Origin: Candidatus Hydrogenedens sp.
GTDB taxonomy: Bacteria > Hydrogenedentota > Hydrogenedentia > Hydrogenedentales > Hydrogenedentaceae
Assembly (NCBI GenBank): GCA_049968235.1
Contig: JBMFRC010000002.1
Span: 160,001-224,000, forward strand
Length of the DNA stretch: 64,000 nucleotides
Reading direction: 5' to 3'
Shown here: piece by piece, positions 16,998-47,336 of the stretch
Numbering within the stretch: the first letter of the stretch is position 1
Layout of the letters: every line of letters begins with the position of its first letter
The notes under the pieces: generated by a model
Seen by the model: only the letters and a program-made list of their open reading frames with translations
Database searches by the model: none
What the model was told of the DNA's origin: nothing
Made by a program: the position numbers and the translations under genes

Positions 16998-17014
16998 ATA
17001 ATGAGTTCTGATAT

Positions 17015-17839: not shown

Positions 17840-17858
17840 AGAAGGAATTGGAGATATT

Positions 17859-23776: not shown

Positions 23777-24768
23777 ATGCGTAAAAAAGTTTCACATTAA
23801 TTGAATTACTAGTCGTTATAGCCATTATTGGTATTCTTGCTGCGATACTACTTCCCGCTCTGGCACGGGCTCGTGAAGCAGCAAGACGTTCCAGTTGCCA
23901 GAATAACCTAAAACAATGGGGTTTGGTATTCAAAATGTACTCTAATGAAGCCAAAGGCGAACGCTATCCCCCGTTACAAACTTACAACCCGATAGAAAAT
24001 GATGCTGATATCGCTGCGGGTCCACAAGTAAGCACTCTATATCCCGAATACCTTACAGACCCCTATATTATCATTTGTCCTTCTGACCCCAGCGCATCAA
24101 ATATGAGAACTAAACTTGAAGAAAATGATGGAAACCTGGTTAAACTTTCAAAAGATATTGACGAAAGTTATGCTTACTTTGGTTGGGTTTTTGATAGACT
24201 AAAGCCTTCCACACCTGCCAATCAATTTCTAATTGTGACTATATTAACTTCATTATTAGGTGGTTCATTTGATACCAGCCAGCCCGTTCCCATCCAATTA
24301 GGAGCAGCATTAGATGGATTATATCACGCAAATATACCATTGGTAACTGCCTATGTGAACGGTTCTGACCCAACTGCTTTAATGAAAGTGATGGACCAGG
24401 ATTCTCACTTACCATCCAGCTGGGCAGGTTATGGGAATGGTGGTGGAAATACCGTATACCGTTTGCGTGAAGGTATTGAACGCTTCCTCATTACCGATAT
24501 TAATAACCCAGCAGCAAGTAACAATGCACAAAGTTCTGTATGGATTATGATGGATACATTCTCCGCAGGTGGAGTTGCCGGTGATTTGTTTAATCATATT
24601 CCGGGTGGTTGTAATGTACTTTATATGGATGGACATGTTGAATTTATAAGATATATAGCCACAAATAATCTTGTTGCCGACCCATCTGGCACAAGTGTTA
24701 ATGGAACTGAGCCTATTATCGCAACAGTGGCAAATATGGTATCTGCAATTGCGGCTGGCTCACAATAA
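23777..24768 (+). pseudogene. DUF1559 / prepilin-type (type II secretion pseudopilin-like) protein, N-terminal frameshift
   Basis: ATG at 23777 with an AGGAG Shine-Dalgarno; MRKKVSH then hits a stop. The +2 frame continues as [43 protein letters not shown], matching the downstream paralog. This is consistent with a 1-nt deletion near 23790. Confidence 0.6.
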
Positions 24769-24790
24769 CTGAAATAATTGTTTTTTACAT

Positions 24791-24834
24791 AAAAAATTCG
24801 TGCAGTTTAAATAAAACTGCACGAATTTTATTTT
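24791..24834 (+). terminator. Rho-independent terminator between the two DUF1559 genes
   Basis: Perfect 14-bp inverted repeat (AATTCGTGCAGTTT / AAACTGCACGAATT), 5-nt loop, followed by TTATTTT. An A-tract precedes it, giving a bidirectional look. Confidence 0.65.
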
Positions 24835-24908
24835 AAATATTGAAAAAAATAATATATAATATAAATATAGTCAATATTTAATTAACAACAATTACAAGGA
24901 TTTTTCTT

Positions 24909-25892
24909 ATGAAAAAAAAGGGTTTTACACTCATCGAATTGCTGGTGGTCATCGCAATCATCGGCATTCTTGCGGCAATTTTATTGCCAGCACTTGCTCG
25001 TGCTCGTGAAGCGGCCCGTCGTTCCAGTTGTGCTAATAATCTTAAACAATGGGGACTGGTCTTTAAAATGTATGCAAATGAAAGTAAAGGGGAACGTTTT
25101 CCCCCAATGCAAACTTATAACCCGATAACACAATCAAGGGCTTTTGCTGTAGGACCACAAGTGGACCTTATTTATCCTGAATATCTAACAGACCCATATA
25201 TAATGATATGTCCTTCGGATGCAGGTGCAAGTGAACATAGGAAAAGATTAGAGGAACACAATGGAAATTTACTTGAGATATCAGAAGATATTGATGCAAG
25301 TTATGCTTATTTTGGATGGCTGTTTGACCACTTAAAACCCATCGCTTCATTAACTTATTTTAACATAACTTTGTTACTATTAGCTGGGGGAGCAAACTTT
25401 GACCCATTAGTCCCAGCACCTATTCAATTTTTCGGAGCTTTAGATGCTTTAGTTGGAGAGTTCCCTAATGATGTTGCAAGATATATTAATAATTCTGACC
25501 CTACTGCACTAATGAAAGTTATGGACCATGACTCGGATTTAAGAAAAGCATCTCCCATTTGTATCGGTTATGGTAATGGAGGAGGAAATATTGTATATCG
25601 TTTAAGAGAAGGGATTGAAAGATTTTTACTCACTGATGTCAATAATCCGGCTTCGAGTAACAGTGCCCAGAGCAGTGTATGGATTATGCTGGATACATTA
25701 GCCACTCCTAACGCTAGAGAACCTCTTTTTAACCATATACCCGGAGGTTGTAATGTTCTTTATATGGACGGACATGTAGAATTCATAAGATATACATCCG
25801 ACCCTGACCTTTATGACCAGGATGTTCCTGGAACAGAACCTGTTGTTTCTGTTGTAGCAAATCTTGTAACAGCCCTAGCTGGCTCTCTCTAA
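24909..25892 (+). CDS. DUF1559 / prepilin-type N-terminal cleavage-methylation domain protein (PVC-group pseudopilin-like)
   Basis: [27 protein letters not shown] class III signal, and the conserved C-terminal [17 protein letters not shown]. Confidence 0.85.
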
Positions 25893-28670: not shown

Positions 28671-29975
28671 ATGAAAAACTTTTATTTCTCGTTACTCCTA
28701 ATTACATTTATTTTCAGTATCCTTTTCTGTTTTTCTGTTTCCGCAATAGACAAAGATAAGGATATGCTATATGTCGGCTCTGCTAAACGGATTGTTACTC
28801 CGGACCCGTTACTGCCGGTATCAGGAGGTGTAGGGACACCAGAACCTGTCGAAAAAAAGATTGGCGATTTGTTTGCTCGTACGATGGTTATGAAAAAAGG
28901 AGATGTAGCAGTAGCTATTGTTAGTCTTGACTTTTTAGGTTGGTCATCCGTATTAGCGGATAAAATCCGTGCACTGGCTCCTCAAATTCCACCTGAAAAT
29001 ATCCTTGTAGGCGTTACGCATACACATAGTGCACCGGAAACCTATGGATTTGTTGATGAGAAGGGAAATTGTTCTGCTGATTTGAAATATCTTGACTGGG
29101 TATGCCTACAAGCAGGCGAAGCAATCAATGAAGCATATAAGAACATGAAGCCTGCCTATTTAAAGATTGCTATGGGTGAGGCAAAAGGAAAAATTGCTTA
29201 TAATTATTATGCAGATGAATTATATGACCATCGTTGCAGTGTATTACAGGCAGTCTCTGCGGAGAAGAAAAAAGAAGGGAAGGTGATTGTAACGCTGGTA
29301 AATTATGCTATTCACCCGGAGGTTATCGGGGATAGTCAAAAGATTTTATCGCCCGACCTTTGTGGTCCTTTATATGACAAGATTGAAGCAGAAACGGGAG
29401 GCATGGCAATGTTTATGAACAGTGCTCAGGGAGGTATGGTCACAGCAGATTGCCGTGGACCGAATGGAGATATTCAGACATGGGATGAATGCATCCGTAT
29501 TGGCGAATTGTTAGCCAGCGAGGCATTGCGTATCGTAAAGGATGCTCCCATCCAGAAAAATCCCACATTGTATTGCACCCATACTCCTGTTGAATTTCCG
29601 ATTGACTCTCCACTACTTCGTATGGTCTTGAAAAATTCACCAATAAAATATCCTATCACAGAAAAAAATACGATACCTACACGAATTAATTTGATTAATG
29701 TTGGGACCGCACAAATAGTAACAATACCTGGCGAAGCCCTGCCCAATATCGGTTTTTACTTAAAACGCAAAATGCCCACTCCACATCCTTTTTTGTTCGG
29801 TTTGACAAATGATGCCTTCGGTTATATCCTTACCAAAGTAGACTGGAATAGTTTTAAAATATATGAATATATTTCACGGACTGGTTTGGGAGAAATGACG
29901 GGCGAAATCCTTATTGATACCATATTAAAATTGGTCAATCAATCCCCCAAACCTGACCCCATTGAAAAACAATAA
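28671..29975 (+). CDS. Neutral/alkaline ceramidase-like N-terminal domain protein, secreted
   Basis: Signal peptide and a GVTHTHSAP motif resembling the HTHSGP motif of the neutral ceramidase family. Confidence 0.5.
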   Translation: MKNFYFSLLLITFIFSILFCFSVSAIDKDKDMLYVGSAKRIVTPDPLLPVSGGVGTPEPVEKKIGDLFARTMVMKKGDVAVAIVSLDFLGWSSVLADKIRALAPQIPPENILVGVTHTHSAPETYGFVDEKGNCSADLKYLDWVCLQAGEAINEAYKNMKPAYLKIAMGEAKGKIAYNYYADELYDHRCSVLQAVSAEKKKEGKVIVTLVNYAIHPEVIGDSQKILSPDLCGPLYDKIEAETGGMAMFMNSAQGGMVTADCRGPNGDIQTWDECIRIGELLASEALRIVKDAPIQKNPTLYCTHTPVEFPIDSPLLRMVLKNSPIKYPITEKNTIPTRINLINVGTAQIVTIPGEALPNIGFYLKRKMPTPHPFLFGLTNDAFGYILTKVDWNSFKIYEYISRTGLGEMTGEILIDTILKLVNQSPKPDPIEKQ

Positions 29976-29982
29976 AAGGGAA

Positions 29983-32145
29983 ATGAACTCATCTAAAACG
30001 GAATTATCACACAAAAATCAAAGACAGTCTTGTTTTTCTGCTGTTGATAGTTCCTTACTTTTGTTTATTCTGCTTTTAGGTTTTTTTCTGAGGAGTTATC
30101 GCATTGATTCACTCTCTTTATGGATCGATGAGTTTGTTACTACATATAAACTGTATCTTTCACCATCATTTGACGAATTTTTATCTTTTTTCAATGTCTA
30201 TCAGTCCGACCAAATTCCATTATCACATCTGATTTACTATTCGATATTTCGTTTGTTTTCGATACCTCTCGCGAATATTGAAATACTTCGCTGGGTCTCT
30301 GTGCTTATCGGAGTAATAAATCTTATCCTGTTCTTTATATTTGTAAAACTATCCTTAGGTCTGCGAACTGCTTTACTTGCAACTCTTTTGCTTGCTCTCT
30401 CTCCATTTCACATTTTATTTGCACAGATGATAAGACCATATATCTTTTATGAGTTTGCAGGATTGTGTTCATTGGTATCAACAATCTTACTTTACAAAAA
30501 ACTTTCCTGGTTTCGCGGATGGCTATGGTTGTTATCTAATACTTTCCTGTTTATTTCACATTACACCGGGATTTTATTAATTCTCATTGAAATATTTTTT
30601 ATATCCTTGCAATTTGTAAAATGCAAAAGGGTTCTCTTCTTATTATTTCCTATTTTATTATTCGGGATTATTACCTGTATTATCTCTTTATTTACAACAA
30701 ATTCGATACCCATATATACAAAAGCAGACGACTTCATTATGGGTATTCCATCGGTTTACAAATGGCTAACCGATTTATTTGCTGACGATGCTATTCTTAC
30801 TAACGAACCTTTTTTTTATCAGGGGCAGACGAGTTCTGTTATTTCTTCTTATTGGCTTAACGAAATTATAGGTTTACACTTATGGTTCGATACGCTCCTT
30901 ATCATTTTTTCCTTTTTTTCAATTATTTATGTGTTACTTGATTTATATTCGAAATGGAAAGATGTATGCGACAAAAAAGAACAAGCGTCATCCTTTTATT
31001 TTTTTCCTATATGGCTAATAACATCACAACCGATTATTCCTTTTCTATTAACTGTGGTCATAGCACCTATTCTTCTTCTGACTTTCCTGTCTTTTCTTAT
31101 TTGGCCCTGTATGCAAACAAGATATACCCTTTACTGTTCATTTGCGATGTATCCACTTATTGCTTATGCTATCGTAAATATCAAACATAGCAAAATTAGG
31201 CAAATATTAGTAGCATGGCTTTTAATTGCCTTTTGTTATCAGACGTTTGTTTCTGCACTTTCTCAAAAAACAACAGATTTTAAGACCGCTGGAAAGATTA
31301 TTTCTCAACGTAGCAAACCTAATGAACCAATACTTACATGGGGAATCTTTTATATTTCTACACCAGTAACTAATGAAATGCTTGCATACTATACAGAAGT
31401 CCCAACTGAAAATATAATACCTGTCTATAGTTTCCCTGATACAATAAACTGTCTCAAAAAACTTTTTTGGGAGAGAAAAAAAGAAACCGCATGGTTGGTA
31501 ATAGAACCGTATGTTTTTCATTTCCCTGATGAAAATTTTATAGAAATGTATTTTTATAAAGCAGGGATAAAATTTGAAAAGACCTTTTTGCCGGGAATGA
31601 ATGGTCTCTGGTTATACCATTTGAGCAAAGATACAAATTCTTTTAGTGAAATGATTGATATTCCTGAATATATCGATTACAATCCATTTATTGAGGTTTT
31701 GAAGAAAGTAAACGCCCCTGATAACATTCTGGAAGAAGCCCAGCATGAATTAAAAAACCACATTGATTTTTATCATCCACCTACCCCAATGATTTGGAAT
31801 TATATTGCATGGTCTGCCCTTGATAGGAACAAACCTGAACTTGCAGAATGGTTTGCCAGATGTGCAATATACCTTCAACCGCAGACACCCTGGGGCTATC
31901 ATTCTCTCGCTATCAGTCAAATGGAACAAAATCATGTACAAGAAGCCCTGAATACAATGCAACAATGCTTTGAAAGAGACACAACAGGTATTCATAAAAG
32001 GCATTATCACCCTCTTATTCATGCCATATACATAGACAAAGATATTAATCATGCAAAACAATTGATAAAGGAATTAGAGGGAAAAGGTGGTTTTGTCAAC
32101 CCAATTTATAAAAAAAGGGCAGGAATCATAAATATGCTTAATTAA
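29983..32145 (+). CDS. Polytopic membrane glycosyltransferase, GT39/GT83 (PMT/ArnT)-like, with a C-terminal TPR-like domain
   Basis: More than 10 predicted TM helices in the N-terminal 430 aa, with a conserved early loop (IDEFVT) and a soluble helical C-terminal domain. ATG at 29983; the TTG track start is rejected. Confidence 0.6.
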   Translation: MNSSKTELSHKNQRQSCFSAVDSSLLLFILLLGFFLRSYRIDSLSLWIDEFVTTYKLYLSPSFDEFLSFFNVYQSDQIPLSHLIYYSIFRLFSIPLANIEILRWVSVLIGVINLILFFIFVKLSLGLRTALLATLLLALSPFHILFAQMIRPYIFYEFAGLCSLVSTILLYKKLSWFRGWLWLLSNTFLFISHYTGILLILIEIFFISLQFVKCKRVLFLLFPILLFGIITCIISLFTTNSIPIYTKADDFIMGIPSVYKWLTDLFADDAILTNEPFFYQGQTSSVISSYWLNEIIGLHLWFDTLLIIFSFFSIIYVLLDLYSKWKDVCDKKEQASSFYFFPIWLITSQPIIPFLLTVVIAPILLLTFLSFLIWPCMQTRYTLYCSFAMYPLIAYAIVNIKHSKIRQILVAWLLIAFCYQTFVSALSQKTTDFKTAGKIISQRSKPNEPILTWGIFYISTPVTNEMLAYYTEVPTENIIPVYSFPDTINCLKKLFWERKKETAWLVIEPYVFHFPDENFIEMYFYKAGIKFEKTFLPGMNGLWLYHLSKDTNSFSEMIDIPEYIDYNPFIEVLKKVNAPDNILEEAQHELKNHIDFYHPPTPMIWNYIAWSALDRNKPELAEWFARCAIYLQPQTPWGYHSLAISQMEQNHVQEALNTMQQCFERDTTGIHKRHYHPLIHAIYIDKDINHAKQLIKELEGKGGFVNPIYKKRAGIINMLN

Positions 32146-32159
32146 CAAAGGATAAGTCT

Positions 32160-33617
32160 ATGAAAAAATATTGGGTAATCTTATTGGTTTTTTATGTAAT
32201 TATCCAGATTACTACTCAAGCACAGATGATGACAAAAGTGGAAACTGTTCCGACAATAGAATTTGCGACCTCTATCCTCAATTTTGGTGCCATTGGGGAT
32301 GGAAAAACCTTAAATACGCAATTCATTCAAAACGCCATTAATACGGTATCGGGACAAGGAGGAGGAGTCGTACTTATCCCCGCAGGAAGATTTCTAACAG
32401 GAACAATTGTATTGAAGAACGGCGTGTTTCTCTATCTCAGTCCCGGAAGTGTACTAATAAGTAGCACAAATATTGAAGATTTTCCCGAAATGATACCCGA
32501 ATACCGTTCTTATACCGACAATTATTCGCAACGTTCACTCATCTTCGCAGAAAAACAAAAAAATATTGGTATTGTCGGTTATGGGAAAATCTATGGACAG
32601 GGAGAACAATTTAAAGAAGATGAAAATAGAATATACAAATTTCGACCTTACCTCGTTCGATTTGTTGAATGCAAAGATGTGAATTTAGAAGGAATAACAT
32701 TTGAAAATGGTGCTATGTGGACTATTCATTTGCTCGCGAATGAAAATGTTCACTGTTCGAATATAAAAATTAACAGTCGTTGCAACCGTAATAATGATGG
32801 TATTGATATTGATTCCTGCGAAAATGTCATTGTTAGCGATTGCCATATTGTTTCTGGCGATGATTCCATTGTTCTCAAAAGCACATCACCCAAACCATGT
32901 AAAAATATAACCATTACAAATTGTATTTTAAGTTCCTTATGCAATGCCTTAAAAATGGGAACAGAATCGAATGGCGGTTTCCAGAATATTTCAATTAGTA
33001 ATTGCACTATTTATGATACCCGTATATCCGGTGTAACAATTCAAACCGTAGATGGAGGAACAACTGAGAACATCGTTGTCAATAACATTTCCATGAAAAA
33101 TGTATCCAATCCTATTTTCATTCGTTTAGGGAACCGTGTACGACCTTGTTGTCCCGAAAAACCTGTTACATCTGTGGGAACAATGAAAAAAATAATCCTT
33201 ACAAATATAATTGCGACAGGTGCTGATTCTATCGGTTGTCCTATTTCAGGACTACCAAATCATTATATTGAGGAAATCACCTTCCGTGATATAAATCTCT
33301 CATTCCAAGGAGAAGTAGAAAATCAAATAGATATTCCAGAGGAAAAAGAGGATGCATATCCGGAGTACAGGATGTTCGGAACATTACCCGCTTATGGCTT
33401 TTTTATAAGGCATGTCAAGAATATCATTATGGAAAATATTACCATCCATAAAGATGATAAAGATATTCGCCCATCTCTTTTTTTAACAGATGTACAGACA
33501 CCTATTATATCCAATATCTATATATTTGATAATAATAAAAAAGAAAAACATATCTTCTCAGAAAACACATCCAACATTACCTTGAAGGATATATACCTGA
33601 ATGGTAAAGTAAAATAA
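32160..33617 (+). CDS. Glycoside hydrolase family 28 (polygalacturonase-like), secreted
   Basis: Signal peptide, N-terminal GAIGDGKT, and beta-helix repeats carrying GH28 catalytic-region-like NDGIDIDSCENV and GDDSIVLKS. Confidence 0.8.
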   Translation: MKKYWVILLVFYVIIQITTQAQMMTKVETVPTIEFATSILNFGAIGDGKTLNTQFIQNAINTVSGQGGGVVLIPAGRFLTGTIVLKNGVFLYLSPGSVLISSTNIEDFPEMIPEYRSYTDNYSQRSLIFAEKQKNIGIVGYGKIYGQGEQFKEDENRIYKFRPYLVRFVECKDVNLEGITFENGAMWTIHLLANENVHCSNIKINSRCNRNNDGIDIDSCENVIVSDCHIVSGDDSIVLKSTSPKPCKNITITNCILSSLCNALKMGTESNGGFQNISISNCTIYDTRISGVTIQTVDGGTTENIVVNNISMKNVSNPIFIRLGNRVRPCCPEKPVTSVGTMKKIILTNIIATGADSIGCPISGLPNHYIEEITFRDINLSFQGEVENQIDIPEEKEDAYPEYRMFGTLPAYGFFIRHVKNIIMENITIHKDDKDIRPSLFLTDVQTPIISNIYIFDNNKKEKHIFSENTSNITLKDIYLNGKVK

Positions 33618-34150
33618 TTGTTATATTTGGTAGCCAATTCCCATAGTGTCAAATAAAACAAAAATTAATACTTACATATACCGCATCAAACACACCTATA
33701 CTTACAATTTTAAATACGGACTATGTAAATAATCACGAATAAAAATGAAGTTTAAAACGTAAATAATTTTGTCATCTCCGTGTTTTCTATGTGAAACAAT
33801 ATTTGCATGTAAAGTGCATAGAATACATAGAGACTGAAGAAAAATAATGGAGAAAAAAATTATTATTAAAGAACAAATTTTAATTATTTAGGGGGAGATT
33901 CCTGTCTCTGTAATATAGAATACTAATATGGGGGTGAAATATTTTTCGTCCTACAAATTATCTCAACTCTATGTAGGAATTCCTTTGAACCTTAGAGACG
34001 AATCTTATATTCGATATTAAAGTAAATAATTAATTGCTACTACAAAGATAACTTAAAATAAGCATAAATAGTCTCATTTATTTTCTTCCTCTCATTGGTT
34101 TCATTCGTCAACAACAATACAATATCAACTCTTTCAAATTTAAAACAGTG

Positions 34151-34178
34151 GGGGACTTATCCAAAAGGATAAGTCCCC
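34151..34178 (-). terminator. Intrinsic terminator downstream of the giant surface-protein gene
   Basis: Perfect 12-bp inverted repeat (GGGGACTTATCC / GGATAAGTCCCC) with a 4-nt loop, 44 nt after the stop. On the minus strand a T-tract (TGTTTTA) follows. Confidence 0.55.
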
Positions 34179-34221
34179 TTGTGTAAAATGCTACCTCGTC
34201 ACATTCGAGGATATTTTTTGA

Positions 34222-37200
34222 TTACTGTTGTCGACGACGCAGAGTAAAAACACCTGCCAAAGCACTTAAAGCAGTTATTATACCAAGACCGAATACACCT
34301 GTAACTGGAATACCCGTTTCCTCGGTAAGCATTGCCACATTGCTGTATATCATATCAAGATAGTCGTCATTTATTAAACAGCGATATTGTCCGCCATCAC
34401 CCTCTTCAAATGGAGTAAATACCAATGTATTGGTATTTGTACCGGAGATATTCCCGATATCTGTTAAATTCTCCCATGCTTTGCCTTCTGTTTGTTTCTG
34501 CCACTGATAGTGAAGGGTTCCAATACCACCTGTTGCAAGCACAGTCATGGAATAATTTTGTCCCATCACTACAGATGAATCAAAAATATCTCCTGTAATT
34601 GTAATGTGGTTTGCAATCCTCACAGTCGCAGTGCCGGATAAATGTACCGATTCGACATCTGTTAATTCAGCATGGTAACCATAGGTTCCTGGCGATAAAG
34701 CCGATGGATCAACTACCAATTCGATGGTATTCATTCCAGATTCAAGGACACCGCTATTCACAATATCTGAATTGCGATACCACAGATATGTGTCATATCC
34801 GGGAATGAAGATACCACCTGTGAATGTAACACTCAGTTCGAAGGTATTACCATCGGTGTAAGCATCTACATCGTAAGGATGTTCGACAATTTGCAGTAAG
34901 TTGCCAACATATACAGTTCTCTCTTTGGATTCACCTGAATTACCACTTCCATCTTTCGGCGTGTAGGTTAATAAATATGAACCCGGTGTGTTTACATCTA
35001 CAACTCCATTGATTTCTACCAGGTCGGTTACATCGCCCCAGCAATAATCTTCAGCGGTGTAGCCCGGGTCAACCCACGGTTCGCCTAACTGCCAGGCTAA
35101 CAATACCGGTCCTTCCATTGTTAATACTGGCAGGTCGTTATCTACTACATTAACTGTTCGATACTCAGTTGTAGTCATCGGATATTCAAGGTCATGGTCT
35201 GTTACTTTGTATTCAATGATGTAGGTTCCCGGCGTAAACGTGTCAACGTCGCCAGTTACGATTACTTCTGATGTTAAATCGCCATCCTCTACATCTGTTG
35301 CGGTATAGCCAGGTTCGTTGTATGGTTCTTTGCAACTTAGTGTCATTGGATTATCACCTAATAGGGTGATTTCAGGTGGATAATTGCGAATGACATGAAT
35401 TGTCCGTGTCTTTTGTATGGCAGAATTGCCACTACTATCAGTGTAATCATAGGTAATCACATAGTCACCTAAATCACTTTCCTGTAGAGGACAATTCGTT
35501 GGGGCTGTGTCCCCACCGATAATAGCGGGACCGGTTCCATCACATGCATCTGCCCATACCGCACCTTCTTCCGTGTAGCAATCCACCATAATTTTCAGCC
35601 ATATTTCTTCATTACCTGTTACGGTTATTACCGGTGCAGTTACATCACGCACGGTTACCGTTGCTGAAGCGGAGGCAGAATTTCCATTTACATCGTAAAC
35701 AGTCAGGTTTACAATATTACCGCCCAGGTCGGCACAGGTAAAGGAAGCCTTGTCTAATTCAAGATGGTCAATACCACAATTATCGGAACTACCATTGTCC
35801 ACATCTACGGGGACAATACTTGCATTACCGTCCGCATCCAAATCTATTGTGATGTTCTTTGTAATCACTGTTGGAGGCATATTATCTTCAACTGTAACAG
35901 TAGCGGTATCAGAAGAACTGTTGCCAGCTGGGTCATAAACGGTCAGGGTTACAACATGAGAACCGATGTCTCCACAATTAAAGGTATTTGGAGTAACTTC
36001 CATGTGGTCTATTGGACAGTTGTCATAACTGCCATCATCCACATCTGAAGGAAGCACTGTTAACTGACCGGAAGCATTAAGATAGAGTGTTACATCCTTT
36101 GTATTTACCATTGGAGCAATATTATCCTGCACGGTTATAGTTGCCGGTGCAGTTCCAATATTACCATTCACATCATAAACGACCAGGTCAACCACAGCAG
36201 TGCCTAAATCAGCACATGTCAGTGTTGATGGGTCTACTTCCATGTGGTCAATACTACAGTTATCGGAACTACCGTTGTCTATATCATCAGGAAGTATTGT
36301 TACCTGTCCGGAATTGTCCAATTGAACTGTAATATCCTGTGTTACCACATTGGGCGGTATAGAATCCTGCACTATAACTAATGCAGGGGCGGAATTACTA
36401 TTGCCATTTACATCTGTAACAGTTAGATTTACTAACACCGAAGGAACATCTGCACATGTAAATGTGCTTTTATCCAGAGACATGTTAGCAATACCACAGT
36501 TATCTGAACTACCATTGTTTACATCTGCCGGAACAATAGATGCATTTCCAGTCGCATCCAATTGTACTGTTATTTGCTTGGTAATAACTGTCGGAGGCAA
36601 GTTATCCTGCACGGTTACATTGCCAACACATTGGTCAGAATTCCCTGCTGGGTCAGTCGCAGTTAATGTTACAGGAATCGTTGAGCCTGCGTCGGTACAT
36701 GTGAATGTTGTTGGAGGTATTGATAAGTTAACAGAGCAATTGTCTGACGAACCGTTATTAATTTCACCAGCATTTAATGTATATGTTCCCAAATTGTTCA
36801 GATACACTGTTATATCTTTGCATACTGCTGTCGGTGCAATGGGGTCATTTACGGTCACTGTTGCATTGCATTCTGCCCAGCGTCCTGTGTTTTCTATTAA
36901 CCGTACCGTAATAGTTGTGGATGGATACATACTGCAATCGAAGTTAACTTTGTCCAAACCGCTGACTTTAACACGCCATAGTCCGCCGGGAACGATGCTA
37001 TTAACTAAATCTGCAAAGTTCACAGCTGGTGCGGATGCATTTCCGGTGTTATCTAACGATACGGACTGGTCATTTCTGCACACTGCAGTCATAGGAAGTG
37101 TTACAGTTTCATAGGCACCACGGTCATTTCCAGCATTTTGGGGGCGTGAAATCATTCGTATATCTGTTGATAATGTTGGGTACGGAGTTGAACCTGCATC

Positions 37201-38289
37201 AATAAATGGTGAAACAGGTTGTAATTCGAACTCTGGAGGAGCAGTTGCAAATAACGGGTCTTGATTTTGGAGTATATTTGTGTTCACAATTGCGGGCAAA
37301 CCACAGCCCGGAGGTGCGCCACCACTGCATACCACTTCTAAGCACGAAGCCATTGCAGGTGTGTTATTCCAGAAAATACAACTATCAATTTTACTTGCAT
37401 TTGTTGTGTTAAAACCGAAAAATCCACCACTGTTTAATCCATATAAACCGCCCGTACTGGTATTTACCGTATTATCTACAAAAGTCGAGAATGCAATAGT
37501 AACATCCGCCTGGTTGGAAAAGAAAGCACCACCACCACGAATAGGGTTACTGCTTGTATCTAACTGACGCTTAGCGGAGTTCTGATAGAAAACGCAGTTT
37601 TGAATTGTGAGTTGGGGAACAATAGCACCGTTTCGTTCATTGGCTATAGCACCACCAGAAACAGCTGCCACATTATCAATGAAGGTGCAGTTTACTACAA
37701 TTACCTGTCCTGCCCAGTTGAACAACCCACCACCACGCCAGGTATGATAATCACCCGCAACCCCTGACGCATTACCCCCCGTAATTTGGAAGCCGTCAAT
37801 ACGAACGTTCAACATTGGGTCTGATTGTTTGCCTACCACTATCACATGGTAAGCCTGTAAACCACCGCGTGAACGAGAGCCATCAATGATAGTCTTTGCC
37901 AAACGAGGATTTCTCTGATTTACTGATGTTTCCTGGATACCCCAGTAACCTTCGAATCCACCATAAAGATGAACATTATCTTCAAGGATTAACGAGCCAT
38001 CCACGCTCGCAGGGAATCCCCATGGAATTGTCCTTATTTCATCATAGACATAGCCTCCACCACCAGGTCCTCCTGCTACCCATACATCGTCCCCTCCATA
38101 TGCAGTTGCAAGGTCAATACCTTCCTGAATCGTGTCGAACGCAGTTGCCCAGGACAAACCATCTTCGACCCCACCTGGTCGCGGTGCCATTTTGTCCACA
38201 TAGACCACAGATTGTGCTGGCATTGCAACAGCAATTAATATTGTTAACACCAGCATAATAAACATTGAGTCCAGCCTGTTTTTAATCAT
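34222..38289 (-). CDS. Giant cell-surface protein: beta-helix domain + 5 tandem HYR-like repeats + DUF5011-type Ig-like domains + C-terminal LPXTG-like anchor
   Basis: ATG at 38289 (MIKNRLDSMFIMLVLTILIAVAMPAQS signal) with an AAGGA Shine-Dalgarno; the track TTG at 38346 is rejected. Pectin-lyase-fold rungs occur at ~aa 150-330. Five exact 80-aa repeats carry NGSSDNC...FTC.D.G....V.LTV.D..GN. PxITLxG...YxEPGYTAxD Ig-like modules follow. The protein ends IPVTG-hydrophobic-RRRQQ. Confidence 0.8.
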   Translation of the reverse strand: MIKNRLDSMFIMLVLTILIAVAMPAQSVVYVDKMAPRPGGVEDGLSWATAFDTIQEGIDLATAYGGDDVWVAGGPGGGGYVYDEIRTIPWGFPASVDGSLILEDNVHLYGGFEGYWGIQETSVNQRNPRLAKTIIDGSRSRGGLQAYHVIVVGKQSDPMLNVRIDGFQITGGNASGVAGDYHTWRGGGLFNWAGQVIVVNCTFIDNVAAVSGGAIANERNGAIVPQLTIQNCVFYQNSAKRQLDTSSNPIRGGGAFFSNQADVTIAFSTFVDNTVNTSTGGLYGLNSGGFFGFNTTNASKIDSCIFWNNTPAMASCLEVVCSGGAPPGCGLPAIVNTNILQNQDPLFATAPPEFELQPVSPFIDAGSTPYPTLSTDIRMISRPQNAGNDRGAYETVTLPMTAVCRNDQSVSLDNTGNASAPAVNFADLVNSIVPGGLWRVKVSGLDKVNFDCSMYPSTTITVRLIENTGRWAECNATVTVNDPIAPTAVCKDITVYLNNLGTYTLNAGEINNGSSDNCSVNLSIPPTTFTCTDAGSTIPVTLTATDPAGNSDQCVGNVTVQDNLPPTVITKQITVQLDATGNASIVPADVNNGSSDNCGIANMSLDKSTFTCADVPSVLVNLTVTDVNGNSNSAPALVIVQDSIPPNVVTQDITVQLDNSGQVTILPDDIDNGSSDNCSIDHMEVDPSTLTCADLGTAVVDLVVYDVNGNIGTAPATITVQDNIAPMVNTKDVTLYLNASGQLTVLPSDVDDGSYDNCPIDHMEVTPNTFNCGDIGSHVVTLTVYDPAGNSSSDTATVTVEDNMPPTVITKNITIDLDADGNASIVPVDVDNGSSDNCGIDHLELDKASFTCADLGGNIVNLTVYDVNGNSASASATVTVRDVTAPVITVTGNEEIWLKIMVDCYTEEGAVWADACDGTGPAIIGGDTAPTNCPLQESDLGDYVITYDYTDSSGNSAIQKTRTIHVIRNYPPEITLLGDNPMTLSCKEPYNEPGYTATDVEDGDLTSEVIVTGDVDTFTPGTYIIEYKVTDHDLEYPMTTTEYRTVNVVDNDLPVLTMEGPVLLAWQLGEPWVDPGYTAEDYCWGDVTDLVEINGVVDVNTPGSYLLTYTPKDGSGNSGESKERTVYVGNLLQIVEHPYDVDAYTDGNTFELSVTFTGGIFIPGYDTYLWYRNSDIVNSGVLESGMNTIELVVDPSALSPGTYGYHAELTDVESVHLSGTATVRIANHITITGDIFDSSVVMGQNYSMTVLATGGIGTLHYQWQKQTEGKAWENLTDIGNISGTNTNTLVFTPFEEGDGGQYRCLINDDYLDMIYSNVAMLTEETGIPVTGVFGLGIITALSALAGVFTLRRRQQ
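35647..36846 (-). repeat. Five tandem 240-nt coding repeats (HYR-like domains) inside the giant gene
   Basis: DNA-level periodicity of exactly 240 nt, with recurring CCATGTGGTC.AT..ACAGTT.TC..AACT.CC blocks, corresponding to 80-aa protein repeats. Confidence 0.7.
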
Positions 38290-38682
38290 AATACAGATCC
38301 TTATTAATGTTATATAGATTAAAATGAGATAAAAAAGATGTACCAACCCAAAATGGACATCCCGATTTCCATGAGTAGATTTTTTGTCTAATTAGCCCTT
38401 CTACTTTTCCCCTCTTTGAGGAAATATCATTATATTTTTTTCTACTTTTCAATATACTTTACCTGCTAAAATTAGACATAAATAAATTTCTGCCTACATC
38501 AAACTATTAATAATAGTATAATATATTTTATTACAAAATAAGTGATTTGTCAAACAAATTTTTTGATAGTTATTATCAATATTTTGCAGAAGTTCATTCA
38601 GAATATTGCAAATTATTTCAGTCCAATATGTTATCCACATATTGTTTCCAATAATAGTATCTCTTTAACTTAATAAATTTAG

Positions 38683-39921
38683 TTAATGTTGTTCCAGCCA
38701 TACTTGTAACTTTTTTGACATAATATTTGAGATAAGTTGATGCCCTTTAGCCGTTGGATGTCCGTCAATAGGGAAAAATAATTTGGGGTTATCTTTCTGC
38801 TCACGGAATTCTTGTGTTAAGATAAAACAAGGTAATGATGCCCGTTCTGCAGAAAGTATAAAATGCTTATCTATATTTTCTGTTGTTAACATCTCGGGAG
38901 ATACTTCAAATTGTAATCGTTTCATATTTTCCCATGCATGCTGATTGACATAGAAACCCTGCGGAATGCTAACAACAACTGTTTCTGCCCCTGCCTTCTT
39001 TCCCATAGATGATATTTCCTCTAATATTTGAGTTAATTTTTCTATACAAGGCACAATGGCTGGGTTCGAACTGTCTTCCAGAGGGATGATAGTAATCTCC
39101 GGACTTTTAATTGCCACAGAAATAAGAAATGGATTAATTAGTCCATCAAGGAAAGCAGAACGAATTTCCTTATCCAGATTATTAAATCGTTTTCTTTCTT
39201 TTTCATTAAATTGCGATAATATTTCTCTTGCAGAATTGCGAGCAGATGCCTGATTTTTCTCTGCATTCGTAAATAAAGCAGGCTTTCTTTTTGTACTTTC
39301 TATCAGATATTTTTGCGTTAAAAATTTTCGAACACTTTTGCTTATGTTTGGGAAAAGATAATTTAAAATATTATAAATAACATTATCTTTTGTGCTTTTT
39401 ATTTCCGAACTACAAACTGCCAGTAAATCATCTCCTTGTAATAGCGCTATCATGATAAGGTCTGGCTCCAATATAGGAATTGCCACTTTCGCTAATTCGA
39501 GGTAAAATAACGGGTCTGCACCTGGCTTACCCAAATTAACCGTCTCAACAGTTTTCCCTTCTATTTTAATTTGATGTTCCAGATGACGCACCCAGGTATC
39601 TGTAATATTTACACCCCAACCATAGGTATAAGAGTCGCCAAACACAAGTATTCGATAAGTATTTTTGTCTTTGGGAATATGTATCTCTTTATCACGGATA
39701 CCGATGGAATTGATACTTACTCGATAGCGAAAATCCGTTGAAACAAATTCCTCATTGGAATATCTTGGGAAAATCAAAGATATACCCTGTGTCAAATAAT
39801 AATTATCTGAGAAACTCAACAAATCATCAATAAAATGAATGGCAATGAGTACAAGAGAAACAGAAATGAATAAAAGACAAAACTCTTTCCATCCAAATCG
39901 GATTTTTTCTTTCTTTTCCAT
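38683..39921 (-). CDS. SGNH/GDSL hydrolase family protein, membrane-anchored
   Basis: N-terminal TM helix and a GDS(Y) block (LVFGDSYTYGWG). Confidence 0.65.
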   Translation of the reverse strand: MEKKEKIRFGWKEFCLLFISVSLVLIAIHFIDDLLSFSDNYYLTQGISLIFPRYSNEEFVSTDFRYRVSINSIGIRDKEIHIPKDKNTYRILVFGDSYTYGWGVNITDTWVRHLEHQIKIEGKTVETVNLGKPGADPLFYLELAKVAIPILEPDLIMIALLQGDDLLAVCSSEIKSTKDNVIYNILNYLFPNISKSVRKFLTQKYLIESTKRKPALFTNAEKNQASARNSAREILSQFNEKERKRFNNLDKEIRSAFLDGLINPFLISVAIKSPEITIIPLEDSSNPAIVPCIEKLTQILEEISSMGKKAGAETVVVSIPQGFYVNQHAWENMKRLQFEVSPEMLTTENIDKHFILSAERASLPCFILTQEFREQKDNPKLFFPIDGHPTAKGHQLISNIMSKKLQVWLEQH

Positions 39922-39997: not shown

Positions 39998-41086
39998 TTA
40001 TGTTGGTGTTCGTTTCCAAATGGAGATGGATAGTATCAAAAATAATAGATTTGCCCCCCATGCACCTATTATCGGTGGTAAAGTCTGGAGATAACCCAAA
40101 CCGGTAAATAGAATAAAACAAAGCATGTAGCACAATGCAGAGATGGCTGTTATTCCGAAACTCAATATAAATCCCCCTTTTTTCCACAATACCGATAAAG
40201 GTAACGCAAGTAATAACATAATAAAAATGCTGGCAGGTCGTGCTATCCGTGCATACCAATCCACTTCATATTTATAAGTAGGTATTCCAAAAAAACGGGC
40301 TCGTTTGATTTCCTCATAAAACTGCTTCCATGTTTTTAGTTCGTGAGGCAGGTCGAGGGCAAATAACGTTTCGGGAGATTCCGTAAATGGAGCAGGTATT
40401 TGTGTAATTCGAATCACCTCTTGTTCCATATCTTTTTTGGGGAAAAGAACAAACTGGCGACCATCTTCTATAAACCATCTTTTTTGTGTCTTATCCCACC
40501 AGATATATCGTGCACGTATTTCGTCAATACGGTCTTCCTGAATGCGATGAATCACTATATCTCTGCCTGTCATGGCTTCGCGATTAAATCGTAATATATG
40601 ACAGGTCCAATTCCCACTTAGATTGGTCCAACTAACACCAGAATGCGTATCTCCCAGGTGGTATGAGAAATACATCTTCTCCAGATGTCGAAACTGTTCT
40701 GCGCACCATACACCCATAGTATCTTCTACAAAAAAACTTCCTATCGCAATACATAATCCGGCAAGAAAAACACTCGTTGTTATTCTCAATAGAGGTATCC
40801 CTCCGGAAAGTAATGCGGATATTTCCCCTTCTTGAGTACTTTTACCCCAGACTAAAAAGGTCGTTAGCATCACACCTGCAGATAGAAAATGGTATTGTAG
40901 AAAAACTTTTGGCAGAGACAATATATAATATTGAACAATAATAATAAATGGAACATTATACTTCTGTACAGATTCCTGTCGGGCAGAAAAAAAATCAACG
41001 ATAACATATAGAAATGCAAGCGTAATTAATACCCTCAAAAAGGTCTTGAGCCACCATAAAAGGTAATATTTGTCTATCGTTTTCAT
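39998..41086 (-). CDS. LptF/LptG family permease (YjgP/YjgQ), second gene of the pair
   Basis: Start set at MKTIDKYYLLWWLKTFL, a typical LptG-type N-terminus, with an ATGA overlap onto the upstream gene's stop. Six TM helices and a periplasmic beta-jellyroll insert. The longer track ORF reaching 41317 is an out-of-frame overlap artefact. Confidence 0.7.
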   Translation of the reverse strand: MKTIDKYYLLWWLKTFLRVLITLAFLYVIVDFFSARQESVQKYNVPFIIIVQYYILSLPKVFLQYHFLSAGVMLTTFLVWGKSTQEGEISALLSGGIPLLRITTSVFLAGLCIAIGSFFVEDTMGVWCAEQFRHLEKMYFSYHLGDTHSGVSWTNLSGNWTCHILRFNREAMTGRDIVIHRIQEDRIDEIRARYIWWDKTQKRWFIEDGRQFVLFPKKDMEQEVIRITQIPAPFTESPETLFALDLPHELKTWKQFYEEIKRARFFGIPTYKYEVDWYARIARPASIFIMLLLALPLSVLWKKGGFILSFGITAISALCYMLCFILFTGLGYLQTLPPIIGAWGANLLFLILSISIWKRTPT

Positions 41087-42207
41087 AATCGGTCTGCCCT
41101 TATTAGAAAAAATAACCCCAACCCGCCGATGAGTATATTCGGTATTTGCTGTACGATACATTTTAGATATAAAGGCATAAGCCCACCTCCCCCCACAGCT
41201 TTGTAAAGAAGAAAATATAGTCCAACAATCAGAAAACCCGTAGAAAAAGCATATGTCGTGCCTGCTCCACGCATTCGCACACCTATCGGCGATGCGATTA
41301 ATCCTAATGCCAGACACATCAAAGGGAAGGAAAGCCGTTCTGCAATTTCACTGCGAAATTTTTTAACATCCGACAGAAGTGGTAATCCTTTTGTTCGCTC
41401 ATATTCCTGCGAGATACGACGGTGCTCTTCCAATAATTCACGAATAGACATACCTGTCCGAAGTCGAATGGTTTCCATAGGCTGGAGTGGAGGAATAGGT
41501 TTTTCTAATCGCTGAAAACTTCCACGAACAACCTGATTATTTTGTTCTTGTGACTCTATCCAGAAACCATTTAACATTTCCAGCACATTTTCATCTTTCC
41601 CTTTTCGCCAGCGTGCTTTTTCTGCATAAAAGGCAACCATTTTCCCTTCATCACCGGGTTGTAATATAACAATGTCCTGCAATTCACCATCTCTTGACCG
41701 TCCTCGAATATATACCCGCAGTTTACCATATTCATACATTTTCCCGGTGGGAATTAAATCTAATGACATACGTAAAGGTAGGTCCATACGGGCTAATTTC
41801 ATAAATTGCCGAAATGCCCATGGTTGTGCAATATCTTGAACAACAAAGCAAAAAATACTCAAAACGAATGATAACATCACCGCAGGTAAGGCTATCCGAC
41901 GCATTGAAATACCCCCAGCAGTCATGGCGATTATCTCCCGATATCGACTCATGCGGTCAAACATTAACATTAAACCAAATAAGAAGGTAATCGGAATAAT
42001 CATCCCCACCATCATCGGAAGTGCATACAACGACATCCATAGAAAATCTGTTACCTGAAGCGGAGCCACAGGAAGTTCATCCAACAATTCTTTTACCTGC
42101 TGTTGGAGTATTCCGCTAATCATTAGAATCGCAACCGCAGAAAACGCAATAAACATTGGCGGGATAATCTGTCGAAGTATATATCGGTCTATCCGTGTTA
42201 TAATCAT
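41083..42207 (-). CDS. LptF/LptG family LPS export permease (YjgP/YjgQ), first gene of the pair
   Basis: MIITRIDRYILRQ N-terminus with the TM1-3 / periplasmic domain / TM4-6 layout. Confidence 0.75.
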   Translation of the reverse strand: MIITRIDRYILRQIIPPMFIAFSAVAILMISGILQQQVKELLDELPVAPLQVTDFLWMSLYALPMMVGMIIPITFLFGLMLMFDRMSRYREIIAMTAGGISMRRIALPAVMLSFVLSIFCFVVQDIAQPWAFRQFMKLARMDLPLRMSLDLIPTGKMYEYGKLRVYIRGRSRDGELQDIVILQPGDEGKMVAFYAEKARWRKGKDENVLEMLNGFWIESQEQNNQVVRGSFQRLEKPIPPLQPMETIRLRTGMSIRELLEEHRRISQEYERTKGLPLLSDVKKFRSEIAERLSFPLMCLALGLIASPIGVRMRGAGTTYAFSTGFLIVGLYFLLYKAVGGGGLMPLYLKCIVQQIPNILIGGLGLFFLIRADRL

Positions 42208-45133: not shown

Positions 45134-45937
45134 TCAAAATAATTCCTCAGTTTCGTCTTGTTTTCCATTTTCTTTTATTCTATATTTTTCTGTCCTTAAT
45201 TGTTGCAGTGCAAATTCATAATACTCTTTTATGATTTAAAAACCAATTTACTGACGTTTCATAAACTTAGATATAACTGCTACTTGACCGGAACCTAAAA
45301 AGGGGTCAAGGATTACATCACCCTCTTCACTTGAATATTCGAGTATTTTTTTTATAATTTCCGCAGGTAACTTCGTAGGAGTTTTTATATCACCAGTCCA
45401 ATATTCCCTTTGGATAAACCACACATCTTCTTTGTCCTGATAGTGTAAACTTTTTCCAGAACTATTTCTTGTGTCTTTTCCATATCTTGCATACGGGAAA
45501 AACTTCCGTCTATAGTCATTTTTACATACATATAGGCAATGGTAGTGAGAAGTTATATATCTACGGTTTGTAACAACTCCAAACTGGTATTTCCATATAA
45601 TATGATTCACCGTAATAAAACCTACTTCATCCAGAGTGTTGAGAATACCCTTTAGATTATTCTATCCCGAAAATACATACACACTACCTGAACCTTTTAA
45701 TAAACGATATACTTCTTTCATCCAATTCAGTGTAAATCTACAATATTCTGCCTGAGGAATCTCATTATACCCTTCAAGAACTCGCTCAGAGATACGATTA
45801 TAATTGGAACGCTTTGCCTTAAAATCAATAGCAAAGGGGAGGTCTGTAATGACGAAATCTATCATCTCACCATTAAGTAACTTCATGCCATCAATACAAT
45901 CTATATTGTAAATATTATTCAATTCCATGCGTTTCAT
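45134..45937 (-). pseudogene. Beta-class N6-adenine/N4-cytosine DNA methyltransferase (PF01555-like), disrupted by three in-frame stops
   Basis: A single reading frame carries motif IV-like ITDLPF near the N-terminus, IIW.K, motif I ILDPFLGSGQ and a C-terminal IGF.I..EYYEFALQQL. It is interrupted by TAG (45662-45664), TAA (45248-45250) and TAA (45236-45238). No frameshift is needed. Confidence 0.6.
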
Positions 45938-46013: not shown

Positions 46014-47336
46014 TTAATCGTAAGTATGGGATATTCCATATAACTTAGCGTATTGATAATGATAGATAATAGCGAGAGATATAAAGAACAGCAAAATATA
46101 ATAAACAGCAAAGGAAACTTCCACCCAATTTGACCATGGTCCTGTAACTAACTGGGCTATAAAGTTCTGAATAAGTAATACTGTCCATATTATAACGGGA
46201 TATTTTGGAAAAGGATTTTTCGTAAATTGGGGGTCATTCGAATTTCGTCTCATATAAAAAACAATAACAATTATTCCCCCAATAATTATTGGGATAAAGA
46301 CCAGCCACAATATTTTGTCCCAGTATTCCTCATTCCCTAAATATATATTTGCCCAACCTTTCATTCCATTCCGTAAAGATAGGGCAATGGCTAAAAACAC
46401 CGTAAGAAACAGGGTTATACGTTCGGTAGTGGGTTTTAATTTTGTTGCATTATTTGAGATAGAAAATTGTAAAGGCTGATTGGTTAGAAAATATGCAATG
46501 CCATAGGCAAAACCGAGACTAATTCCACCGGAGGTCTCCCAACAACGCCACCAGTTAAAGTTATACCCTTCCCAGATAGACTGTGCCCATTTCCAATTCT
46601 GTAATGATGCCCAGCCAATACCGTTTATAATTCCTACACTTAAAATAAGGATAATATTCTTCCTATCTTTCCGAAAAATTTCACCTGTAAGAACACCTAA
46701 ATAAAGTCCTAAATGCATAATCGCACTGCGATTATCATTAATCAACCATCGTAAATTCGGATTGTTTTGTAAATCCATATAGCGTTCCTTCACCGTGCTA
46801 TATAAGGGCAGGAATACATTAGGAAAACTTTCAAACATAAATCTCGCAATCACAATTCCACCAATAGCACATAAAATCCTCACTATCCAGTCCTTCTTTG
46901 TTGTTTTCTTTTCACAACTTGCCCAGGCAAGGAAACACGCTCCTAACCCTGCCCATGGAATCCCCGAAATAAACTGCCAGATAAATCCGTAATAACGAGG
47001 TATAGGGACAAATTCGCCTGCGGGATAATTGGTATACATTCTACCTTCAAAAAAAGCGGGCCATTGCATCCAACCTCTTGCTCCAGCAACAGCAATACCC
47101 AGTGTCATTGCCATAAGAGCAAATGCGTTTGAGTAGGGTCGGACTGATGAACAACTCGGGTCATAGGAAAGGAACCACCATGCAGTTCCTAATGTAATTC
47201 CTGCAAATAAGCAACCATTGAACGCTCCAAAGCCTGAACACCCGCGAACCGCCCAGGTCATCCCTCCCAATACAACAAACAGAAGAGTAGGAAGTATCAA
47301 TTCGTGAAAGTAGTAGTGTGTCTTGGAAATATTCAT
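46014..47336 (-). CDS. Polytopic integral membrane protein of unknown function (Trp/aromatic-rich)
   Basis: 440 aa with about 10 hydrophobic segments, an ATG start, and no recognisable catalytic motif. Confidence 0.5.
   Translation of the reverse strand: MNISKTHYYFHELILPTLLFVVLGGMTWAVRGCSGFGAFNGCLFAGITLGTAWWFLSYDPSCSSVRPYSNAFALMAMTLGIAVAGARGWMQWPAFFEGRMYTNYPAGEFVPIPRYYGFIWQFISGIPWAGLGACFLAWASCEKKTTKKDWIVRILCAIGGIVIARFMFESFPNVFLPLYSTVKERYMDLQNNPNLRWLINDNRSAIMHLGLYLGVLTGEIFRKDRKNIILILSVGIINGIGWASLQNWKWAQSIWEGYNFNWWRCWETSGGISLGFAYGIAYFLTNQPLQFSISNNATKLKPTTERITLFLTVFLAIALSLRNGMKGWANIYLGNEEYWDKILWLVFIPIIIGGIIVIVFYMRRNSNDPQFTKNPFPKYPVIIWTVLLIQNFIAQLVTGPWSNWVEVSFAVYYILLFFISLAIIYHYQYAKLYGISHTYD

Follow-up and report, generated by a model that had tools for sequence, protein, structure and literature searches.

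Sortase, exosortase/archaeosortase, rhombosortase and myxosortase are examples of new membrane enzymes to which tripartite C-terminal signals have repeatedly pointed. Most exosortase and archaeosortase signals start with [VI]-P (TIGR02595, TIGR03778, TIGR03370, TIGR04174). Proteins bearing the GlyGly-CTERM tail of the rhombosortase system or the MYXO-CTERM tail of the myxosortase system are cleaved at the tail and reach the cell surface of their diderm hosts via type II secretion systems (T2SS) (PMC6219818 and PMC11980579, respectively), and eight attributes of tripartite sorting signals were listed by Haft (bioRxiv 10.1101/2023.06.07.544157, section 5). Here we analysed a stretch of 64,000 nucleotides from Candidatus Hydrogenedens sp. 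(contig JBMFRC010000002.1, positions 160,001 to 224,000; hereafter the window), in which a minus-strand gene at 34222-38289 encodes a 1,355-aa protein with a tripartite C-terminal tail. Among the known tripartite sorting signals, this tail is best described as a so far orphan, uncatalogued variant centred on Hydrogenedentota, and probably, though far from certainly, it is genuinely a sorting signal with a dedicated enzyme that processes it.

The tail shares with the PEP-CTERM/exosortase system its environmental diderm hosts, its tripartite layout with a V-P motif, a helix some 20 residues long and a cluster of Arg, and its occurrence on many unrelated secreted proteins; unlike PEP-CTERM, the family of the window protein shows no Pro-Glu-Pro and has a fixed helix pattern of its own (G9, A18 and G21 of the tail consensus), and no exosortase was seen near about 35 tail-bearing loci. 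MYXO-CTERM (TIGR03901), whose surface cargo uses the T2SS, offers a parallel in being tripartite, restricted to a phylum and for a long time without a known enzyme, but its motif holds an invariant Cys, whereas the family motif has none and a Cys occurs only in the helix of one subtype. From GlyGly-CTERM, with VesB and Rhombotarget A as its examples, the tail differs by its conserved Pro and its fixed 19-residue helix. With LPXTG/sortase A it has in common the tripartite layout and, in this one protein, the string IPVTG, whereas the family consensus is GVPxAG, the Thr is unconserved, the host is a diderm and no sortase was found. Finally, type IX secretion system (T9SS) domains (PF18962, PF13585) end homologous HYR-like/DUF5011/beta-helix passengers, where they presumably serve surface attachment, but they are beta-sandwiches of about 80 residues that use another export machine, whereas the tail described here is transmembrane.

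Sequence and spread of the tail

Three elements make up the tail of the window protein (coordinates are those of the window throughout):

34297..34314, minus strand: signature motif, residues 1326-1331, here GIPVTG (consensus in the family G-[VI]-P-[VA]-A-G)
34240..34296, minus strand: 19-residue transmembrane segment, residues 1332-1350, pattern xxGLxxxxxxxALxGxxxL
34225..34239, minus strand: basic cluster RRRQQ, residues 1351-1355

The C-terminus reads ...EET-GIPVTG-VFGLGIITALSALAGVFTL-RRRQQ. A first-pass annotation, made from the DNA letters before any database search, had recognised this tripartite layout, which is indeed present, and had given the hydrophobic stretch 21 residues, where the count is 19. 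The same kind of tail was carried by 64 of the 120 best homologs, giving with the window protein a set of 65 tail-bearing sequences, and the spacer between motif and basic cluster was exactly 19 residues long in 64 of these 65. Among the motif variants of the set, GIPVAG and GVPAAG occurred 15 times each, GVPAVG and GVPVAG were also found, and GIPVTG was present in four sequences.

The full consensus, derived from 163 unique tails, was G-[VI]-P-[VA]-A-G-x-[LF]-G-L-x3-A-x2-[ST]-A-L-[GA]-G-A-x2-[LI]-R-R-R-K. Within the motif G1 was conserved in 76% and G6 in 91% of the unique tails and P3 was invariant, the regular expression itself requiring P3 and restricting position 6. The helix showed G9 in 96%, L10 in 83%, A18 in 98%, L19 in 80% and G21 in 100% of the tails; in and directly after the motif a level of about 90% was reached at P3, G6 and G9 only, and G9 sits within the hydrophobic segment, not in the motif. 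In the basic cluster Arg was found at successive positions in 99%, 79% and 77% of the tails, or, counting both basic residues, R in 99%, then R/K in 100%, R/K in 97% and K/R in 73%.

The spread of the tail was assessed with a profile of the tail alone (alignment A1, 33 columns) in an exhaustive search of 1.84 billion representative proteins, which returned 176 protein clusters at E ≤ 1e-3, with lengths from 45 to 3,450 aa. The match lay no more than 5 residues from the C-terminus in 132 of the 135 new representatives and in all 65 sequences of the homolog set. The sharing of the C-terminal motif by other proteins, which the first-pass annotation had proposed to look for, was therefore borne out, both in at least 176 clusters and in an adjacent 1,820-aa paralog in related genomes. 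Passengers were compared on the representatives of at least 140 aa (n=107): once the tail was removed, 41 of them had no BLAST similarity to the window protein and fell into 23 single-linkage groups. Pfam recognised 42 families among 86 tail-bearing proteins, dominated by immunoglobulin (Ig)-type domains and including PKD, fn3, Laminin_G_3, Malectin and TSP3. A crude heuristic detected a signal peptide in 42 of these 86 representatives, of which 66 begin with Met, many entries being fragments. The organism-named tail proteins were all from Hydrogenedentota, save one 65-aa fragment from a metagenome-assembled genome (MAG) labelled 'Nitrospiraceae'.

The specificity of a tail hidden Markov model (HMM) was assessed on all six-frame open reading frames (ORFs) of 54 fetched loci. 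In the first 15 loci and the window, true tails scored at least 39 bits and all other ORFs less than 8 bits; the wider set of loci gave weaker matches, still C-terminal, down to 22 bits. Two other search formats were tried. Alignment A1 was too variable for pattern scanning, and a pattern scan with alignment A3 returned 202 matches, of which tblastn upheld none; a word-indexed search with a tail profile of 42 aa retrieved 9 short fragments only.

Among the 120 best homologs, the T9SS domain PF18962 stood in place of the tail in 27, all apparently of Bacteroidota type, and PF13585 in 10. These T9SS replacements, together with the choice-of-anchor Q domain of the protein (see below), show that the C-terminus of the family is a slot for lineage-specific surface-sorting signals. 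Of the eight attributes listed by Haft, five were found here: the C-terminal position, the hydrophobic helix, the basic cluster, the unrelated passengers and the presence of other signals in homologs.

The main rival is a plain C-terminal transmembrane anchor, left uncleaved in the inner membrane, or in the outer membrane after extraction, in which the small conserved residues would help helices pack against one another or oligomerise. The ALxGA stretch does resemble a small-xxx-small packing motif, an Ig-like domain precedes the tail in most tail-bearing proteins, and no sorting enzyme was found in any DNA examined. A plain anchor, however, leaves unexplained the near-invariant G-x-P-x-x-G outside the membrane, the helix fixed at 19 residues, the recurrence of the same 30 residues on at least 23 unrelated passenger families and the T9SS replacement in homologs; moreover, an adhesin-type protein of 1,300 aa in the periplasm of a diderm with lipopolysaccharide (LPS) would have no access to extracellular polymers. 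We consider this explanation unlikely.

Several points nonetheless weigh against a dedicated sorting signal. As 66 of the 107 representatives share Ig-like domains with the window protein, the conservation of the tail is partly due to common descent, and organism names cover only a minority of the tail matches. The whole 64-kb window contains one tail-bearing gene, the tail HMM having been run on all its ORFs, and several tails per genome were seen only as two adjacent paralogs; two tail-bearing genes share a contig in six related loci (L001-L003, L008, L018, L019). No sortase, exosortase, rhomboid or CPBP gene was detected in the window or in the flanks of tail genes elsewhere (about 630 kb), and the cleavage of the tail and the anchoring of the product are proposed by analogy with the described systems. 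Lastly, the isolated tail of the window protein reached 18.1 bits on the LPXTG_anchor model TIGR01167, above its cutoff of 15.9.

A second tail subtype was observed in metagenome proteins (P0149-P0255), in which an acidic linker of GE/GD repeats is followed by G[AMT]PVAGMLGLGLVAAACALGGAMTLRKK. These tails are near-identical across unrelated N-terminal parts (Malectin, Laminin_G_3 or no Pfam match) and hold a conserved Cys within the helix.

Catalogued signals and the search for the enzyme

Twenty isolated tails were compared with the models of NCBIfam release 20, and ten of these tails also with those of Pfam. None of the 19 family tails other than that of the window protein reached the cutoff of any NCBIfam CTERM model or, for the ten tails scanned, of any Pfam model. 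The window tail passes TIGR01167 because of its atypical Thr: on the other 19 tails this model gave at most 14.4 bits or was not listed, and it was not listed for the whole protein at E ≤ 0.1. Thr occupies the fifth motif position in 5 of the 65 tail-bearing sequences (about 7% of the unique tails). Among the orthologs, ten of which are full-length and 72-83% identical to the window protein, this position is A, T or S and the last Gly is sometimes replaced by Ser or Asn.

A genuine LPXTG/sortase substrate, which the string IPVTG had suggested to the first-pass annotation, is thus highly improbable, with Thr in so few tails and no family tail but the window's own at the model cutoff. The class was rejected on the unconserved Thr and on the enzyme side, where no SrtA-like ORF (phmmer) and no ORF with a TLxTC motif was found in 652 kb, and PF04203 sortase was absent from the window ORFs and the annotated neighbours; the host, besides, is a diderm with an Lpt system. 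Judged from the sequences, the tail resembles the LPXTG signal of Gram-positive bacteria by coincidence. An annotation trap is corrected in this way, as the tail scored alone leads to the protein being miscalled 'LPXTG cell wall anchor'.

The PEP-CTERM signal offered as the other option found no support in its canonical form either, since the Pro-Glu-Pro signature is missing from the family motif G-[VI]-P-[VA]-A-G and the models, with scores of 7-12.7 bits overall, gave at most 11.1 bits (TIGR02595, cutoff 16) and 12.7 bits (PF07589, cutoff 20.7). Another reading is that the cognate enzyme belongs to the exosortase family and that the tail is a divergent [VI]P signal like VPEP, VPDSG, VPLPA or IPTL; this would be a sub-case of the dedicated sorting signal that names the enzyme. 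The [VI]-P start of the family motif and the environmental diderm host speak for it, as do weak matches to IPTL-CTERM (up to 20.2 bits, cutoff 20.5), VPLPA-CTERM, VPDSG-CTERM, PEP-CTERM and midcut-by-XrtH, but every one of these lies below its cutoff and PF09721 exosortase was found neither among the annotated neighbours nor among the ORFs with multiple transmembrane (TM) segments in the flanks. An exosortase is therefore a possible, rather doubtful, candidate for the enzyme. Among the models tried, PGAP, GVDTG, NPXTG, CoaP, MYXO, Loki, Heimdall, VPLPA, VPDSG and IPTL all remained below cutoff.

The Gly-rich motif might instead be cut by a rhombosortase-like or other intramembrane protease, with export through a T2SS-like system with the expanded DUF1559 pseudopilins. 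A DUF1559 gene lies no more than 1.4 kb from a tail gene in four independent metagenome loci (L013 10437-11537, L017 6171-7193, L055 1005-2099, L056 7554-9695) and, as GlyGly-CTERM and MYXO-CTERM cargo use the T2SS, this proximity is a hint, by analogy, of a T2SS-like route across the outer membrane. However, DUF1559 genes are abundant (18 in 695 kb, or one per 39 kb), so that the adjacency may be due to chance, and the nearest one to the tail gene of the window is 8.3 kb away. Furthermore, the GlyGly-CTERM model TIGR03501 was not listed for any of the 20 tails even at E ≤ 10, and neither a rhombosortase nor any other rhomboid gene was present in any flank. We regard this alternative as quite unlikely.

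The search for the enzyme behind a dedicated sorting signal covered 695 kb of DNA, including the window, whose 64 kb were the part of this genome examined. Outside it, 57 further loci round tail-bearing genes were reached by contig look-ups, 12 in number, a single genome scan and two scans of metagenome data. Pfam and NCBIfam models for sortase, exosortase, rhomboid, rhombosortase and CPBP matched none of the approximately 40 window ORFs. In the flanks, the ORFs with at least five TM segments encoded LptF/G, ABC permeases (L029, L031), an OPT transporter and a PAP2 protein, and a further multi-TM ORF in L011 was read as an HGSNAT-like acyltransferase. As none was found in the window and the 57 loci, the enzyme, if it exists, is not linked to the genes of its substrates, which is usual for sorting systems in which many substrates depend on one enzyme (PMC3237569). 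A literature search combining Hydrogenedentes/Hydrogenedentota with exosortase, sortase or PEP-CTERM, or using the motif strings, returned nothing relevant. The orphan tail provides a ready profile for phylogenetic profiling toward its enzyme.

One membrane protein of the window deserved closer consideration, a 440-aa protein encoded at 46014-47336 with about 10 helices and invariant Arg-Cys-Trp-Glu, His and Glu residues, for which no Pfam, NCBIfam, PDB or fold relative was found. A member of its family occurs 7.7 kb from a tail gene in the window and in L001/L002, 4.3 kb in L057 and 9.5 kb in L007, while by a rough estimate fewer than 0.2 such co-locations would be expected by chance for a single-copy gene in the sampled DNA. 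Each of the three contexts is a neighbourhood of glycan degradation, and the proximity is more simply explained by a metabolic theme common to these genes. The protein has 612 homologs; those listed are more than 50% identical to it, and several of them are named as MAG proteins of Verrucomicrobiae, Pirellulales or Acidobacteriota. With homologs in other phyla a role as the tail-specific enzyme is unsupported, and the protein was kept as a low-probability lead. That the GVPxAG tail is read by an undescribed enzyme family, with this protein as one candidate and with the cargo passing the outer membrane by a T2SS-like machine that uses the DUF1559 pseudopilins encoded beside other tail genes, is very unlikely.

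Architecture and putative function of the 1,355-aa protein

The gene product is a Sec-exported multidomain cell-surface protein, with the following parts ahead of the tail:

38209..38289, minus strand: Sec-type signal peptide with the cleavage motif AQS/AQA, residues 1-27 (sequence read directly; kept in orthologs)
37105..38208, minus strand: right-handed parallel beta-helix module, residues 28-395, including a choice-of-anchor Q cap at 352-395
36841..37104, minus strand: Ig-like beta-sandwich, the degenerate 'repeat 0', residues 396-483, which closes the N-terminal module (AlphaFold, Foldseek)
35641..36840, minus strand: five tandem 80-aa HYR-like Ig repeats, residues 484-883 (motif, alignment, PF02494)
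34900..35640, minus strand: three DUF5011/Bact_surface_Ig-like domains, residues 884-1130 (PF16403, EPGY/DPGY motifs)
34324..34899, minus strand: two Ig-like domains, residues 1131-1322 (Ig_3 and homolog comparison)

The N-terminal signal peptide reads MIKNRLDSMFIMLVLTILIAVAMPAQS|VV. The following 450 residues or so form the module that is kept throughout the protein family, N-terminal in the window protein and internal in paralogs of 1,800 aa. In the AlphaFold model, built from a 20-sequence alignment, this N-terminal module is a right-handed parallel beta-helix of the pectin lyase-like fold, with a predicted local distance difference test (pLDDT) score of 91.6 and a predicted template modelling (pTM) score of 0.92, so that the pectin-lyase fold proposed by the first-pass annotation was right, whereas the HMM it had put forward for the beta-helix, PF13229, had no match in the protein at E ≤ 0.01. 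The choice-of-anchor Q domain (NF041518) was recognised by NCBIfam at residues 352-395 with 33.8 bits, reaching its cutoff of 25. The beta-strands of repeat 0 span residues 391-452 of the model, i.e. about 418-479 of the protein, and Foldseek returned local matches to Rib and PKD domains with target-normalised TM-scores (template modelling scores) up to 0.68.

The 80-aa repeats had been called five HYR repeats. There are five of them, each exactly 80 aa long and carrying one [ND][ND]GSxDNC motif (residues 511, 591, 671, 751 and 831), and they align at 40-47% identity with repeats found in Bacteroidota proteins whose NCBI name is 'HYR domain-containing'; PF02494 (HYR), however, gave 20.1 bits, under its cutoff of 21.7, and its match covers only the C-terminal third of the model. 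From the repeat sequences, 'HYR-like' seems a fair label although the Pfam threshold is unmet. The DUF5011 modules were recovered as three stretches by PF16403 (149.8 bits, cutoff 27, E = 2.1e-44), with an EPGY motif at residue 992 and a DPGY motif at 1074. In the last Ig-like module, residues 1131-1322, which also stands before the tail in most homologs, Ig_3 matched residues 1238-1305 with 23 bits, below its cutoff of 30. Altogether the stalk comprises about 11 Ig-like domains (one degenerate repeat, five HYR-like, three DUF5011 and two Ig-like), and the description of the product as a secreted multidomain surface protein with a beta-helix and Ig-like repeats is supported.

A mechanism for the dedicated sorting signal can be modelled on PEP-CTERM/exosortase, GlyGly-CTERM/rhombosortase and MYXO-CTERM/myxosortase. 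The protein would be exported by the Sec pathway and then held in the inner membrane by its tail, with the Arg cluster on the cytoplasmic side. A dedicated membrane-embedded enzyme would recognise the junction between motif and helix and remove the helix, leaving or attaching a lipid or glycan anchor. Once folded, the protein would finally be brought to the outer membrane's outer face, possibly with the help of a machine resembling type II secretion, and the distal beta-helix would be held off the cell by the Ig-like stalk.

The modelled beta-helix has a polysaccharide lyase/epimerase-type fold, with putative catalytic activity. Its closest known counterparts are the beta-helix enzymes PL6 (7dmk), PL9 (1ru4) and AlgE4 (2pyg), but at the sequence level the module showed no similarity to any solved structure in single-sequence and profile searches of the PDB, and PF13229 is silent on it. 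Because the gene adjoins genes for a GH28 polygalacturonase and GDSL esterases, a role on acidic polysaccharides is suggested, and the beta-helix might bind or cleave a polymer of this type from plants or microbes. Capture or cleavage of polysaccharides suits a beta-helix that a long stalk of Ig repeats displays at the surface. To our knowledge, Hydrogenedentota is a phylum without cultured members. The tail marks its predicted surface proteome, in which giant proteins with Ig repeats and beta-helices make up a large part; in digesters and sediments these may serve to attach to polysaccharides or to attack them.

The gene and its neighbourhood

The gene and its expression signals are as follows:

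34222..38289, minus strand: coding sequence, 1,355 aa and stop, ATG start at 38289
38298..38302, minus strand: AAGGA ribosome-binding site with a spacing of 8 nt to the ATG at 38289 (sequence read directly)
38525..38553, minus strand: promoter-like site TTGACA-17-TAAAAT, 11/12 matches, about 235 nt upstream of the ATG (consensus match only)
34151..34178, minus strand: terminator-like hairpin with a GC-rich 12-bp stem and an interrupted T tract, 44 nt past the stop codon

The longest ORF over the feature spans 34222-38346 on the minus strand if counted from a TTG. The ATG at 38289 is favoured as the start because the AAGGA box lies 8 nt upstream of it and the orthologs begin at the equivalent residue; the 1,355-aa ORF of the first-pass annotation is real. 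A partial protein, 100% identical, has been deposited (P0001, 'MAG: immunoglobulin-like domain-containing protein [Candidatus Hydrogenedens sp.]'). As had been noticed earlier, the gene is bordered by AT-rich spacers, one of 393 bp (24% GC) and one of 604 bp (29% GC), where the window averages 37%; neither spacer gave a match to Rfam or in a tRNA scan. At the place of the proposed terminator, the 12-bp GC-rich hairpin after the stop folds with -30 kcal/mol (z = -4.67 vs shuffles), and its T tract is interrupted. Consensus matches of the promoter-like kind showed no enrichment relative to shuffled sequence.

The window encodes LptF and LptG at 39998-42207, from which we conclude that the host is an LPS-bearing diderm. 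It had been taken for a diderm of the Planctomycetes-Verrucomicrobia-Chlamydiae (PVC) type, whereas it belongs to Hydrogenedentota, not PVC; the premise can probably be traced to the DUF1559/N-methyl pseudopilin-like genes at 23923-25892, as such genes are also typical of Planctomycetes. In related genomes, one syntenic locus of which belongs to Candidatus Hydrogenedens terephthalaticus, the conserved upstream synteny comprises a GDSL esterase, LptG/F, MutY, a ComM-like ATPase, the 440-aa protein and RlmN. Downstream, related Hydrogenedens genomes hold a paralog of about 1,820 aa with the same tail and an internal beta-helix module (L001 14737-20190); in the window this paralog is missing and synteny breaks, the 604-bp spacer (33618-34221, 29% GC) being followed by a convergent GH28 gene.

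Further genes of the window are listed below:

7746-9938, minus strand: GH141-like beta-helix protein
13831-15021, plus strand: CE15-type glucuronyl esterase
23923-24768 and 24909-25892, plus strand: DUF1559/N-methyl prepilin-like genes, H-X9-DG-CTERM
32160-33617, plus strand: GH28 polygalacturonase-like enzyme with signal peptide
38683-39921, minus strand: GDSL esterase

The GH141-like, CE15-type, GH28 and GDSL genes form a pectin/uronate-related set, and further esterases are also encoded. Directly upstream of the DUF1559 genes lies the longest gene-free stretch of the window (22877-23922, 1,046 bp, about 28% GC), which had no Rfam or tRNA match. A gene at 29962-32145 on the plus strand, which overlaps the preceding ceramidase-like gene by 14 nt, encodes a protein of 727 aa that has about 11 TM segments and matched no Pfam model. 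A 2-hydroxyacyl-CoA dehydratase-type cluster was found at 15834-19100 on the plus strand, in the order HGD-D, BcrAD/BadFG activator ATPase and HGD-D. Finally, a 120-aa ORF at 45248-45610 on the minus strand is probably a gene fragment, since its match to the N6_N4 DNA methylase model is confined to model positions 76-205.

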